From the NCBI GenBank assembly GCA_963775685.1, contig CAVZJV010000001.1, forward strand, positions 44,945 to 108,944: a stretch of 64,000 bases of DNA, written 5' to 3'. Origin of the DNA: Candidatus Bathyarchaeota archaeon. GTDB taxonomy: Archaea > Thermoproteota > Bathyarchaeia > Bathyarchaeales > Bathycorpusculaceae. Made by a program: the position numbers and the translations under genes. Numbering within the stretch: the stretch's first letter is position 1; every line of letters begins with the position of its first letter. A model generated the notes under the pieces. That model saw only the letters and a list, made by a program, of their open reading frames with translations, ran no database searches and was not told the origin of the DNA. Of this stretch, positions 11,618-15,525 are shown one piece after another.

Positions 11618-12616
11618 CTATTTTCCAGAAAGAATTCGTGTGTAGGGGTCGTCAGCTATCTGGGGGAACGGCGCTTCTTTTCCTTTCTTAATTAGAATCC
11701 GTTCTGTATTCTCTGTGAATTCACCCAAAAAATAAGCCGAAAGCTCATTCTTCCTTAATGCGGCTTTCACTTTTTCTTGCGCTTCAGGCTTCACGGCTGC
11801 CAAAATCGTTCCCGTCGAAGACAAAGCCAGCATTTGGTCATCGGTGAGGTTGAAATGGTTTTTTAGCTCATAAACTTCCTTTGAAACTGGAACTTTATCC
11901 AAATCCACCCTAAACCCAACTTTTGACGCCAAAGCCAACTCGTTTAGCGCCGCCACAAACCCACCTTCCGTTGCATCATGCATCGCATGCACTCCCTCAA
12001 TCTCGATGAGTTGGAGAGCTTCTTTTACGCAACTTTGCAAGTAGACCAGTTTTTCGAGCGCGCCTTGTTCGTCAACACCAAAGAGCGCCTGGGCTTTTTC
12101 CTTGTGGTTGAGCGAGAAGTTGGTGATTGTTTCTAAACCAAGCGGCTTAGTGCACAAGATCAAGTCATCTGACTTAGCGTTTCCCGGCGTAATCAACTTC
12201 GTGGGTTCTAAGGTTCCGTAAACGGTGCAGACTCCGAGCGGTTCTTTGAGGCTACCGTACATACCTGTGTGCCCGCGGACGATGGCTATCCCTAATTCGT
12301 CGGCAGCGCTGCAGGTTTGTTTCATGATCTTTTGGAAGACTTCAGCTTTGGTTCCTATCGGTCCAAGAAGGTTAATGGTGCAAAATTCAGGTTTAGCCCC
12401 AAATAGCGCCACATCGGAGGCGGCATAATTAATCATTAGCCACCCAAACCAGTTTTCAGAAACCCCCGTGCATGGGTCCGTTGCAACCGCCACGTACTTG
12501 CCATGTAAAAGGTGAACCCCTGCATCATACCCAATCATAGGTGGGATGATAACTCGGAAATCTTTTTTTATGCAATTTAGCATTTTCTCTAAGTCTTTGC
12601 CGGCTAGTTTTCCCAT
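11618..12616 (-). CDS. AIR-synthase/PurM-fold protein (ThiL/HypE-like)
   Basis: GYDAGV, ATDP, NYAASDVALFGA, RGHT and MHDATEGG motifs; overlaps the thiT stop codon (TAATG). Confidence 0.8.
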   Translation of the reverse strand: MGKLAGKDLEKMLNCIKKDFRVIIPPMIGYDAGVHLLHGKYVAVATDPCTGVSENWFGWLMINYAASDVALFGAKPEFCTINLLGPIGTKAEVFQKIMKQTCSAADELGIAIVRGHTGMYGSLKEPLGVCTVYGTLEPTKLITPGNAKSDDLILCTKPLGLETITNFSLNHKEKAQALFGVDEQGALEKLVYLQSCVKEALQLIEIEGVHAMHDATEGGFVAALNELALASKVGFRVDLDKVPVSKEVYELKNHFNLTDDQMLALSSTGTILAAVKPEAQEKVKAALRKNELSAYFLGEFTENTERILIKKGKEAPFPQIADDPYTRILSGK

Positions 12617-13152
12617 TACATGTATGCCTTCAACACATTGCTCTTATGTAGTAAGTAGATAAAGAAAACGCTAATTATCAACTCGGGCAGCATGTAACTT
12701 CCGTTGTAGATTGTTGAGTAAACCCAAGGATTCATTCCTGGAGGAGCGTAGCTTGCAAAGAAGAGTGCTCCTGAAATCAGATGCATAATAAATCTGCCTG
12801 TTATTGCAACAACCACGCCTACTAATGCATATTTCTTGAAGAAACCCGCTAACCCCAAGCAACCGAATGCTAAGGGGTAATCCAGCAAAATTTGAGTTGG
12901 GTAATATATTTGGGGCATAATCGCCAACTGCACCAACCCATAGATGACGCCTGTAAAGATGCCGATTTTTGGTCCTCTGCGCAGAGCCAGCCAAAGCATG
13001 GGCACCATTGAGCCTGCAGTAACGGATCCACCTTCTGGAAAAACGACGAATGTAATAAGACTCAAGGCTGTGCTTAAGGCTGTAAAAATTGCTATTTCTG
13101 CGAGGATTTGAGTTCTGGGTTCAATTTTAGGTTTAGATGTATTGTGGTTCAT
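12616..13152 (-). CDS. thiT: energy-coupling-factor thiamine transporter S component
   Basis: PEGGSVT, LRRGPKIG, QILLDYPLAF, HLISGALFF and YSTIYNGSY motifs; true start is ATG 13152 directly after the riboswitch. Confidence 0.9.
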   Translation of the reverse strand: MNHNTSKPKIEPRTQILAEIAIFTALSTALSLITFVVFPEGGSVTAGSMVPMLWLALRRGPKIGIFTGVIYGLVQLAIMPQIYYPTQILLDYPLAFGCLGLAGFFKKYALVGVVVAITGRFIMHLISGALFFASYAPPGMNPWVYSTIYNGSYMLPELIISVFFIYLLHKSNVLKAYM

Positions 13153-13156
13153 TTGT

Positions 13157-13250
13157 TTTCCCTCCGCCAGTATTACCTGGTTCAGGTTCCTAAGGGTCGA
13201 CAGCAAACAGCCGTCCTCTCAGCCAGGTCATTTTCCCAGCTCCCCAAGAA
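13157..13250 (-). promoter_or_regulatory. TPP (thi-box) riboswitch
   Basis: minus strand reads GGGGAGCTGGG..CTGGCTGAGAGGACGGC..GTCGACCCTTAGGAACCTGAACCAGGTAATACTGGCGGAGGGAA, with all conserved TPP aptamer segments, 5 nt upstream of the thiT ATG. Confidence 0.93.
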
Positions 13251-13305
13251 CTATTGGGTAATGTTGCTTTGACTCATATTAGTTTTGCTAATAATTGCAC
13301 TTTGT

Positions 13306-14112
13306 TTATTTGTTTTGAGTCGTGTCTTTTATTTTCATTTTATTCTTGTATGCAAAGATTGCTGCAATCGCCGAACCGGTTACGAAAACGGCGGCTATTA
13401 AGACTATTGAACTATTGTCCAAGCTTATTGATTGACCATTTTCGGTTTGTGGTTGAAGTGTTTGAGTGGGCTTAGAGTCGTTTGCGGGAGGAACAATTTG
13501 GTTTGTCGTGGAGTTATCAGGAATAGGTTGGGAAGTAGATTGCGTTTGTTTGGGAGTCATTGTGGGTGTAGGAAGTGCCTGTGTGTTTTCAAGGAGGTTT
13601 GTTATTAGATCGGCTCGCCCCCCCGATCCCGAGGCGGCGGCCGGTGAATCAACTTCATTGTCGCCCATAGTTATGGAAACTATTTGAGCAATCCAAGATG
13701 CGCCGTTAACTCCTGGAAGGACCAAACGTAGCCCAGTTACTGGATCCCCGTCTTTTTGATAAGCTATAATCGTTTCTTGCGTCATAGCCAATTGAATGGG
13801 TATTGTGACCATGTAAGAGTCTGAAGCTGTAAATTGGATTGATTTTACTTCAGAGCTAACGTTTGCCTGTGTTAATATATAGCTGAGTTGCACTCCAGTC
13901 CAATCTCCACTGGCTACAAGGCTGCCATAACAGTAGAGTTCAGCATATAGAGTGGTTTGGGGCATTTCTGTAATTTGTTGATAAGTTAAGTTGTAGGTAT
14001 CGTGTGATAGGTTTATTACTTCGATTGTGCTGTCGGCAATTGTTGTGGGTATGATGGTCATTAGCAGTACTGCCATAATTACCAATATTGGGATATATTG
14101 AACTTTCATCAT
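13306..14112 (-). CDS. secreted, membrane-anchored molybdopterin-binding (sulfite oxidase/MsrP-like) domain protein
   Basis: signal peptide, LYCYG, GDWTGVQL, F.ASDSY, GLRLVLPG..W; T/P/Q linker and C-terminal TM helix. Confidence 0.7.
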   Translation of the reverse strand: MMKVQYIPILVIMAVLLMTIIPTTIADSTIEVINLSHDTYNLTYQQITEMPQTTLYAELYCYGSLVASGDWTGVQLSYILTQANVSSEVKSIQFTASDSYMVTIPIQLAMTQETIIAYQKDGDPVTGLRLVLPGVNGASWIAQIVSITMGDNEVDSPAAASGSGGRADLITNLLENTQALPTPTMTPKQTQSTSQPIPDNSTTNQIVPPANDSKPTQTLQPQTENGQSISLDNSSIVLIAAVFVTGSAIAAIFAYKNKMKIKDTTQNK

Positions 14113-14419
14113 CGTTCCATCCACATATGCAATTATATGACATGTGTCATACTCTTAAAGTCTTCTCCAAAAACAGTAAGCTAAAGCCATTAACCTGTAA
14201 GAATACACATTACAGAAAACGACCCAAAGAAACTATTCAATTGACTTCAGTCAAACAGCCGAAAAAAATAATTACCTCAAGAGGCTTGTTGCTTTTAAAA
14301 GATTTAGTGTTCTATAGCATGCTGTTGTTGCCAAAAAACCTCATATCACAACAACCAAACAAAATGCAGACAAAAAGCTCAAAAACACCTTGAGCAATCT
14401 ACATTTAAATTAGATGTTG

Positions 14420-15525
14420 TAGTCCCCAAAACCCGCTTGATCTACTTAGATAACCTCAAAGTGTTCCTAATCATTCTTGTAATCCTAGTTCACTTAACGA
14501 TAACTTACGGGCCTCCAACAGGCTTATGGCACTATCACGAAGGCACAGTAAGCATGCCAGAGGGCTTACTATACGTGTTTTTCCAAGTAATCTGCCAAGC
14601 GTTCTTTATGGGACTATTGTTCCTGCTCTCGGGCTATTTCACCCCTGCATCCTACGACCGTAAAGGACAAGGACTATACATTGTGGATCGTCTATTGAGA
14701 CTTGGAATCCCAATCTGAGCTTCATTTTCTTCATCGACCCCTTGATGCAGTTTGCGCTTAACGGCTTCCAAGGGTCGCTTCTAGGCTTCTTTGCTGCAAA
14801 CCCTCTCGCAGGATTGGGATTTGGACCTCTGTGGTTTGTTGAGGCGTTGCTTTTCTTTGCCATAGCATTCATGGCTTGGCGAAGCCTCGCACTTAAACCT
14901 GCCAAAGCATATGGCACTCCAAAAAATCACGTCATCTTGCTCTTTGGCTTAATGCTCGGCGCAGTAACGTTTGTTACTAGACTTGTTTTTCCGGTTGGCT
15001 ATGTTTTTGATTTACTCAACTTCCAGCTTCCCTTCTTTCCACAGTACATTGCATTGTTTGTAGTTGGGATAATAGGTTACAGAAACAATTGGATTCAAAG
15101 TATACTGAAAAGTACAGGCAGTTTTTGGGTTAGGGTCGCCATTTTGCTTTTGGCGTTATTGCCAATCATAATAATTGTCGGTGGCTCCAATGGCTACTTC
15201 AACCCCTTTTACGGCGGAATGTTTTGGCAGCCGGCGGCTTATGCATTTTGGGAACAACTCTTCTGCGTCGCAGTGGTTGTTGGTTTAACGGTGTTTTTCC
15301 GAGAAAGACTGAACACCCAAAATCGGTTCACCAAAGCACTCTCTGATAGCTCATACACCGCATACATACTGCAAGCGCCCATACTCATCTATCTAGCTCT
15401 GGCATTGAAAAACATCCAGATGCCGCTTGCTAAAATTCGAGGTTGTAAGCCCCGTTGCTGTAGCGCTCTGTTTTCTGGTTGCTTTCTTGATTAGAAAAAT
15501 TCCCAAAGTAGACAAAGTCCTTTAA
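14420..15525 (+). pseudogene. acyltransferase-3 (OpgC/MdoC-like) membrane protein, two frameshifts
   Basis: RLIYLDNLK, FFMGLLFLLSGYF, RLLRLGIP, GPLWFV and SYTAY motifs across frames. Confidence 0.75.

Follow-up and report, generated by a model that had tools for sequence, protein, structure and literature searches.

The minus strand of a 64,000-nucleotide (nt) stretch of DNA from a Candidatus Bathyarchaeota archaeon (the window, taken at its full length) carries a thiamine pyrophosphate (TPP) riboswitch aptamer directly 5′ of thiT, the gene for the S component of an energy-coupling factor (ECF)-type thiamine transporter, and of a downstream PurM-like gene. The Shine-Dalgarno (SD) sequence of thiT lies within the 3′ part of this aptamer, and the element was read as an OFF switch that would act on translation initiation without a separate expression platform, at the head of the thiT/PurM-like operon of a thiamine auxotroph, a reading to which a probability of roughly 0.6 was assigned. 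It builds on the observed identity, conservation and covariation of the aptamer, the position and spacing of the SD, the anti-SD of the 16S rRNA, and the gene context.

The window was compared with Rfam 15 using cmscan, giving a single cis-regulatory match, to the TPP family RF00059 (13256..13143, minus strand, full model, positions 1–105), with a score of 55.2 bits against a gathering score of 54.3 and an E-value of 4.3e-8; the Infernal check that an earlier note on this DNA had proposed thus returned a match over the cut-off. Besides this copy in the thiT leader, no second TPP match at E ≤ 1 was found in the 3.06 Mb genome. The score is marginal, relatives reaching 53.7–72.2 bits and class members up to 83.9 bits, and is lowered by one extra G in J2/4, common to 7 of 69 aligned copies, including the window. 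All six TPP motifs listed in the earlier note were found, though on the minus strand: GGGG (13245..13242), GCTGAGA (13223..13217), GACCC (13198..13194), ACCTGA, GGTAATACT, and GCGGAGGGAA, which ends at 13158. An open reading frame (ORF) of 196 amino acids (aa) starting from TTG 13206 overlaps the aptamer and was discarded as an ORF-calling artefact.

For structural analysis, an alignment of 69 copies was used (the window, 41 copies from its own order, and 27 from the class), and structure was counted over 24 pairs in P2, P3, P3a, P4 and P5. Paired cells made up 93.2%, falling to 33–55% when the partners were slid by 1–3 columns, and two-sided changes were found at 11 pairs and in 111 cells, values reached in 0 of 500 shuffles; the shuffle control is uncorrected for relatedness, for which the slid-partner control corrects, and the two agree. 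Covariation backs P2, P3, P3a and P5, and P4 (CCU/AGG), being invariant, is uninformative; the P4 and P5 pairs are all invariant save one P5 pair that covaries between A-U and G-C (54 and 15 sequences). The pocket motifs CUGAGA of J3/2, ACCUGA and GCG.AGGGA are invariant in all 69 Bathyarchaeia copies and present in the window. The element, kept in 34 of 36 same-genus genomes and covarying in this way, is far beyond chance. As the earlier note had proposed, the Rfam score, the invariant ligand-pocket motifs and the covariation identify the element as a genuine TPP riboswitch, a member of the known class, in a Bathyarchaeia genome.

The same note had called the aptamer canonical, a description that does not fully hold in view of the P1 helix. 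As aligned by cmscan in the window, P1 consists of one G-C and three A-U pairs, with one C facing a gap. When the 10 nt preceding P2 were matched to the 13 nt that follow P4, duplex energies averaged −0.86 kcal/mol, against −1.35 kcal/mol for shuffled flanks, and P1 complementarity at p ≤ 0.05 was found in 0 of 42 own-order copies; the complementarity of the spacer GAAAACAA to the 5′ flank was likewise not above that of shuffles. By these comparisons P1 is unsupported, and apparently degenerate, in the lineage of the window. Strong P1 helices (−8 to −11 kcal/mol) were found in several class members from other families. Some of the class copies at loci L047–L076 have strong P1 helices that are GC-rich.

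The GGAGG of the window (13165..13161) is separated from the thiT ATG (13152..13150) by a spacer of 8 nt, close to the distance of about 10 nt given in the earlier note, and is complementary to the 3′ end of the 16S rRNA (...CACCUCCU), the terminus of which, ...GGAUCACCUCCU, carries the anti-SD. Across 1656 crude ORFs of the genome, SD-like 5-mers cluster at positions −15 to −11 relative to the start (34, 47, 45, 38 and 40 counts), over a background of 2–9 counts at −25 to −20; the thiT GGAGG starts at −13. GGAGG was found in 42 of 43 own-order copies (the window and 42 loci), the sole copy lacking it (L027) having a frameshifted gene and GAAGG in its place. In 39 of 43, an intact ORF no shorter than 100 aa starts 4–12 nt past the motif, with ATG in 19, GTG in 17 and TTG in 3, and a spacing of 7–10 nt in 33 of these 39. 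The four misses comprise three loci with frameshifted genes (L011, L017, L027) and one without an ATG, GTG or TTG start (L026), and assembly errors or decay are possible causes of these broken genes. Since only 8 nt separate the SD from the AUG, there is no room for a platform, a hairpin or a T-run. The placement of the SD in the 3′ part of the aptamer with no separate expression platform, which the earlier note had proposed, was therefore borne out, and the survey of leaders in Bathyarchaeia that it suggested returned the same compact design in most own-order copies. As judged from these alignments, the layout conserved in the lineage is one with the SD in the pyrophosphate-sensor arm, a degenerate P1, and no expression platform.

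By motif alignment, the second nucleotide of GGAGG is the equivalent of U79 of Escherichia coli thiM, which is forced extrahelical upon TPP binding according to the structural account in Lang et al. 2007 (PMC2018614). An extrahelical position in the bound state would leave the identity of this nucleotide free and so account for a perfect SD at this site; of the 69 copies, 9 have G-U as the "pair" with G79, and 60 leave it unpaired. The idea that the G completing GGAGG always goes with an immediate start was considered and rejected, as it fails class-wide, with G, U and A all occurring with near and far starts. Start codons inside the aptamer (GGGATG; L064, L076) were also rejected, the corresponding frames giving low-complexity products other than ThiT, and the next ATG being likelier.

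To describe the distribution of the element, matches at E ≤ 0.01 were counted in an own-order set of 61 genomes, window genome included, of which 43 gave a TPP match. Within the genus, 34 of the 36 other genomes had a match; in other families of the order the count was 8 of 24 (f4 1/1, f6 3/3, f7 3/3, f9 1/1), with no match in f2, f3, f5, f8, f10, f11 or f12. The own-order copies lie 5′ of thiT in 37 of 43 cases and of another ECF S component in 6 of 43. The latter loci (L007, L011, L034, L038, L041, L045) encode a protein of ~180 aa (PF07155, 33 bits), and the gene at L011 is frameshifted. Of 151 genomes drawn evenly from the class, 93 gave a match, 92 of them above the cut-off; matches were found in 48 of 79 genera and in 64 of the 95 genomes of high quality, with 2–4 copies in some genomes; the view in the earlier note that riboswitches are rare in archaea does not hold for TPP in this class. 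The genes that follow class aptamers are ThiT-like at 10 of the 30 best loci; others are ThiW (126 and 150.7 bits), ThiC-size ORFs (432–467 aa) and permease-like ORFs of 433 aa (L047–L076). Two loci, L051 and L053, have leaders of 50–120 nt with a hairpin and T-run, and may be termination-type archaeal riboswitches.

Upstream regions were compared using 41 sequences with 70 nt upstream each. In most own-order loci, AAAAC and a TA-rich box recur 31–43 nt upstream of GGGG, followed by a T-rich stretch and then by conserved A −7, G −6, C −3 and T −2. Placed at the usual archaeal distance from the TATA element, the transcription start of the window copy would fall near A13252, so that the mRNA would begin at the nominal P1 5′ strand.

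In the OFF-switch reading, the SD is made up of the J5/4 G, the nucleotide lying outside the helices when the E. coli aptamer is bound, and the P4 3′ strand, and the spacer between SD and AUG would be the remnant of the P1 3′ strand. Bound TPP would lock the pyrophosphate-sensor arm P4/P5 against the P2/P3 arm, and the locked arms would block pairing of the small ribosomal subunit with the SD; at low TPP, P4, only three base pairs long, would open, and the importer and a salvage enzyme would be made. TPP binding, the transcription start and the occlusion step are what we infer from this arrangement. Several points weigh against it. The helical arms of E. coli thiM, we presume, largely pre-form without ligand, and pre-formed arms would mean that an SD in P4 might be poorly accessible even without TPP. 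The mean unpaired probability of the SD was only 0.35 without ligand constraint (ViennaRNA, 38 sequences). P1, the normal transmitter of binding, appears unsupported in the lineage. A strong SD-like 5-mer precedes only 224 of the 1656 crude ORFs (13.5%), so that SD-led initiation is not the rule in this genome, and in the class, copies with an immediate start also occur that carry U or A in place of the G that completes GGAGG.

A strand exchange within the aptamer would lead to the same outcome by another route, one that is possible though clearly less probable than direct occlusion. Without TPP, AGUUCUU (13252..13246) would pair with AGGAAC (13191..13186), made up of J2/4 sequence and the opening C of P4. 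The resulting helix would lengthen P2 while disrupting P4 and the three-way junction, leaving the SD and spacer free; TPP would reclaim J2/4 and close P4 over the SD, the platform being embedded in the aptamer. This helix is part of the minimum-free-energy fold of the window (−36.7 kcal/mol, GUUCUUGGGG paired with CCUUAGGAAC), against −34.4 kcal/mol with P2, P4 and P5 enforced, and ensembles of 38 own-order leaders contain a mean of 2.15 flank:J2/4 pairs against 0.02 flank:tail (P1) pairs; nearest-neighbour folding, however, ignores tertiary structure. Duplexes of the flank with J2/4 and the P4 start (A(G)GAAC) averaged −2.85 kcal/mol, against −1.10 kcal/mol for shuffled sequences, with p ≤ 0.05 in 8 of 42 own-order copies (P1 giving 0 of 42), figures that are not probabilities because the sequences are kin; the other 34 of 42 copies were no better than shuffles at that threshold, and the flank types L009, L014, L016 and L034 have no complementarity. 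The extra G in J2/4, present in seven copies including the window, would lengthen the helix, and J2-4 and P1 form the slow, ligand-dependent step in E. coli thiM in the folding description of Lang 2007 (PMC2018614). The helix relies, however, on the predicted transcription start, and its target GAACC is invariant for aptamer function, so that two-sided covariation is unobtainable. In its widest form, which we hold at the same tentative level, the element would be a TPP riboswitch without P1 and platform that works as a one-domain translational switch, in which, without TPP, nt 1–7 of the mRNA engage J2/4 and the P4 start by base pairing and open the SD, TPP reclaims both, the nucleotides of the pyrophosphate pocket serve as the ribosome-binding site, and the PurM-like protein is the missing thiamine kinase. 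If this were true, one RNA would rule the whole B1 economy of an auxotrophic archaeon.

Control at the level of transcript elongation or of mRNA stability, for example by oligo-T termination of the archaeal kind or by RNase access, is improbable. A T5 run is located 70 nt past the aptamer, within thiT, and other Bathyarchaeia families (L051, L053) have their hairpin and T-run 50–120 nt before the ORF; however, T runs of at least 5 within 150 nt were found in only 14 of 43 own-order copies, at varying positions (27–95 nt), and oligo-T termination was rejected for this lack of conservation. The gap of 8 nt between aptamer and AUG is too short for a hairpin or T-run, and the features that do not vary are the identity and spacing of the SD. 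Less probable still, and very improbable, is that the element responds not to TPP but to a precursor or analogue of thiamine, or that it is a functionless relic in decay. The degenerate P1, the marginal Rfam score (55.2 against 54.3) and the broken downstream genes in a few relatives (frameshifts at L011, L017 and L027, no canonical start at L026) would fit such a case, against which stand the invariance of CUGAGA, ACCUGA and GCG.AGGGA in 69 of 69 copies, compensatory changes that keep P3, P3a and P5, and retention before thiamine transporters in 34 of 36 same-genus genomes.

The product of thiT scored 150.4 bits with TIGR02357 (cut-off 108.45) and 167.9 bits with PF09515; the score above the equivalog cut-off and four EcfT/CbiQ-family genes in the genome, the part of the energising module that was searched for, place it with ThiT. 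The second gene, which from the TAATG overlap is probably translationally coupled to thiT, encodes a protein with AIRS and AIRS_C domains, with NCBIfam scores of 89 bits for selD, 80.5 for thiL and 79.2 for hypE, all far under the cut-offs. It does not qualify as ThiL (TIGR01379, 80.5 against 184.15 bits), a canonical ThiL being encoded elsewhere in the genome (258.1 bits), and the nearest solved structures are HypE, SelD and PurM, at no more than 50.9 bits. Within the genus the gene adjoins thiT at 29 of 34 loci, an arrangement also seen at several loci in families f4, f6, f7 and f30, and the gene was found at 0 of 44 bacterial thiT loci. Searches of the genome (96.9% complete) gave 0 matches for ThiC, TPK, ThiE and ThiN, only short N-terminal matches for Thi4, and nothing above the cut-off for ThiD. 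At this completeness, the outcome points to an apparent thiamine auxotroph, which would import thiamine and have to phosphorylate it. As a candidate salvage kinase, the PurM-like enzyme might supply the thiamine kinase that is missing in archaea. With no thiamine synthesis genes seen, the single switch would govern both uptake and salvage, and the operon would be a marker of vitamin dependence in the community.

To place thiT, a quick IQ-TREE phylogeny of 98 rows was calculated with a midpoint root and two bacterial phyla sampled, leaving out the fragments L017, L027 and L079, the window duplicate L101 and the 27%-identical L125, and merging identical rows. All 57 archaeal rows form one group (Shimodaira–Hasegawa-like approximate likelihood ratio test (SH-aLRT) 96), which joins nine Clostridia-type Bacillota rows, including Alkalibaculum and Christensenella (SH-aLRT 88), the other Bacillota and all Synergistota lying on the far side of the tree. 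Of 401 genomes sampled from the phylum, 42 have PF09515, mostly in the family (21 of 25) and order of the window; it was also found in 36 of 101 Bacillota and 56 of 81 Synergistota genomes, and, among named control genomes, only in Bacillus subtilis, Thermotoga maritima and Lactococcus lactis. TPP aptamers were detected at 10 of 12 further bacterial thiT loci. None was detected at six archaeal ones, five in other classes of the phylum and one in family f11. The ThiT proteins of the one genus fall into three well-separated subclades of 8, 12 and 13 rows, 52–66% identical to the window protein, and some Bacillota ThiT proteins, at up to 57% identity to it, are about as distant as the same-genus subclades. 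This split points to old paralogues that were lost differentially, or to replacement among members of the genus.

The earlier note had suggested that regulator and transporter were acquired together, and this stands in part. In its favour are the single archaeal clade beside Clostridia-type Bacillota, the patchy occurrence of ThiT (42 of 401) and the aptamers at bacterial thiT loci (10 of 12); against it are the bacterial platforms of 36–112 nt, the PurM-like partner in 0 of 44 bacterial loci, the six archaeal thiT loci outside the group of the window that have no aptamer, and a riboswitch commoner than ThiT in the class. A single ancient exchange of thiT with bacteria resembling Bacillota is plausible, and the aptamer may have travelled with the gene; the platform, promoter and operon partner, however, are archaeal, and in this lineage the riboswitch class is not tied to thiT.

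In ten bacterial thiT leaders the distance from aptamer to start is 36–112 nt, and examples from Firmicutes have a hairpin and T-run, followed by an SD of their own. In a pattern search, GCGGAGGGA followed by a possible start was found in 89 of 401 Bacillota genomes. Among 30 Bacillota loci with GCGGAGGGA that were examined, 18 were aptamer-like, of which 0 or 1 had, within 14 nt, an ORF of 100 aa or longer, the lone possible case (L180) being probably an in-frame extension, with no such ORF in its three kin. Since GCGGAGGGA is common in Bacillota, GGAGG at this site of the aptamer is ordinary, and its use as a ribosome-binding site is what appears to mark the lineage.

TPP riboswitches are reportedly present in archaea of the Thermoplasmatales (said to go back to Rodionov 2002), and Thermoplasmatales and other euryarchaeal examples resemble the window element in having a TPP aptamer before a thiamine transporter gene in an archaeon. 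In SAM-II, SAM-III/SMK box and preQ1-II riboswitches the SD is part of the aptamer, and the window element would follow the same principle, with the ligand burying the ribosome-binding site in the sensor and no platform; their fold and ligand are other ones, and the likeness is one of mechanism, not of family membership. The element shares its class with bacterial TPP riboswitches such as E. coli thiM, a translational switch, and L. lactis RSthiT (PMC8862789), including the P2-P3(-P3a) and P4-P5 arms and the pocket motifs, and the P3a stem is described in PMC8862789 as common in bacteria and archaea. The L. lactis leader likewise controls thiT, as do those at 10 of 12 bacterial thiT loci tested, but by the account given there (PMC8862789) it has a U-stretch terminator, whereas in the window element the start codon lies 8 nt past the GGAGG of the aptamer. 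The unsupported P1 and the B recognition element (BRE)/TATA-type promoter also set the window element apart from bacterial thiT leaders.

Published counts of archaeal riboswitches are 79 for Euryarchaeota, 6 for Crenarchaeota, 1 for Korarchaeota and 1 for Thaumarchaeota, from a source in whose consulted text Bathyarchaeia are not named (McCown 2017, PMC5473149), against 93 of 151 class genomes here; the riboswitch classes known in archaea are TPP and fluoride. The fluoride riboswitch of Thermococcus kodakarensis, also natural, archaeal and presumed translational, and differing in class from TPP, is described in PMC8241225, with reference to Speed 2018, as the only experimentally determined natural riboswitch of archaea. 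A full-text search, with subscription journals and supplements mostly outside its scope, found no link of Bathyarchaeota or Bathyarchaeia to TPP riboswitches. Supplementary tables (e.g. those of McCown 2017) may include Bathyarchaeota, and any Rfam annotation would flag the element, so that a prior listing is possible. A little-studied archaeal class uses TPP switches routinely, and in this widespread, uncultured class thiamine genes seem to be under RNA control in the manner of a bacterial regulon. The element measures ~100 nt, stretches from what is apparently the 5′ end of the mRNA to the start codon and has a bacterial-type GGAGG, and, being this compact, would make the mechanism accessible with a short synthetic RNA.

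The assembly consists of 14 contigs and is 96.92% complete with 2.37% contamination. Two small-subunit (SSU) rRNA genes, on contigs C14 and C13, scored 1484 and 1476.5 bits with the archaeal model, which also wins the Rfam clan competition at locus L002; the rRNA genes are on contigs other than that of the window (C1), which has none. The closest named relatives of the ThiT protein are from metagenome-assembled genomes titled Candidatus Bathycorpusculum (78% and 73% identity), all named database matches are to Bathycorpusculum, Bathyarchaeota, Bathyarchaeia or Nitrososphaerota, and the gene order riboswitch-thiT-PurM-like recurs in same-genus genomes. Domain-diagnostic families were not found among ten large window ORFs searched with NCBIfam. 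An archaeal origin of C1 is supported by the names of the ThiT homologues, the synteny and the BRE/TATA-type upstream motif, which, with the archaeal SSU genes, speak against the possibility raised in the earlier note that the contig might prove bacterial.

Table. Features of the riboswitch, its promoter and the downstream genes (window coordinates)
Feature	Position	Strand	Remarks
BRE/TATA-like element: AAAAC 13286..13282, TAATAT 13281..13276	13276..13286	-	putative promoter
TPP riboswitch aptamer	13143..13256	-	RF00059 match, 55.2 bits
Predicted mRNA 5′ end AGUUCUU	13246..13252	-	nominal P1 5′ strand; complementary to J2/4 (AGGAAC)
P2 5′ strand GGG	13243..13245	-	pairs with CCC 13196..13194; columns 12-14/65-67 G-C in 69/69
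P3 hairpin, 13240..13235 with 13227..13222	13222..13240	-	3/6 pairs change on both sides; 98.3% of cells paired
J3/2 CUGAGA, pyrimidine-pocket motif	13217..13222	-	invariant in 69/69; pocket role as described in the structural account of PMC2018614
P3a hairpin, 13215..13210 with 13204..13199	13199..13215	-	6/6 pairs change on both sides; 97.1% paired
J2/4 (UUAGGAA) and first C of P4	13186..13193	-	one extra G compared with most relatives
P4 5′ strand CCU 13186..13184, J4/5, P5 hairpin 13180..13177 with 13170..13167, L5	13167..13186	-	
Shine-Dalgarno GGAGG	13161..13165	-	J5/4 G, nucleotide equivalent to thiM U79 (by motif alignment), and P4 3′ strand AGG
A-rich spacer GAAAACAA	13153..13160	-	nominal J4/1 and P1 3′ strand; aligned by cmscan as P1 with a bulge
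thiT, ECF-type thiamine transporter S component, 178 aa, ATG 13152..13150	12616..13152	-	TIGR02357, PF09515
PurM/AIR-synthase-superfamily gene, 332 aa	11618..12616	-	ATG overlaps thiT stop (TAATG)

Directly upstream of the riboswitch promoter, positions 13306–14124 of the minus strand encode a protein of 272 aa with an Oxidored_molyb domain (60.9 bits), an N-terminal hydrophobic segment, a Thr/Gln/Pro-rich stretch and a C-terminal hydrophobic segment, an unusual and apparently surface-anchored molybdopterin-domain protein. Further along, on the plus strand, an Acyl_transf_3 gene (14437–15494) is divided into two ORFs (14437–14718 and 14742–15494), the second of which covers profile positions 99–302 only, pointing to a possible frameshift or pseudogene.

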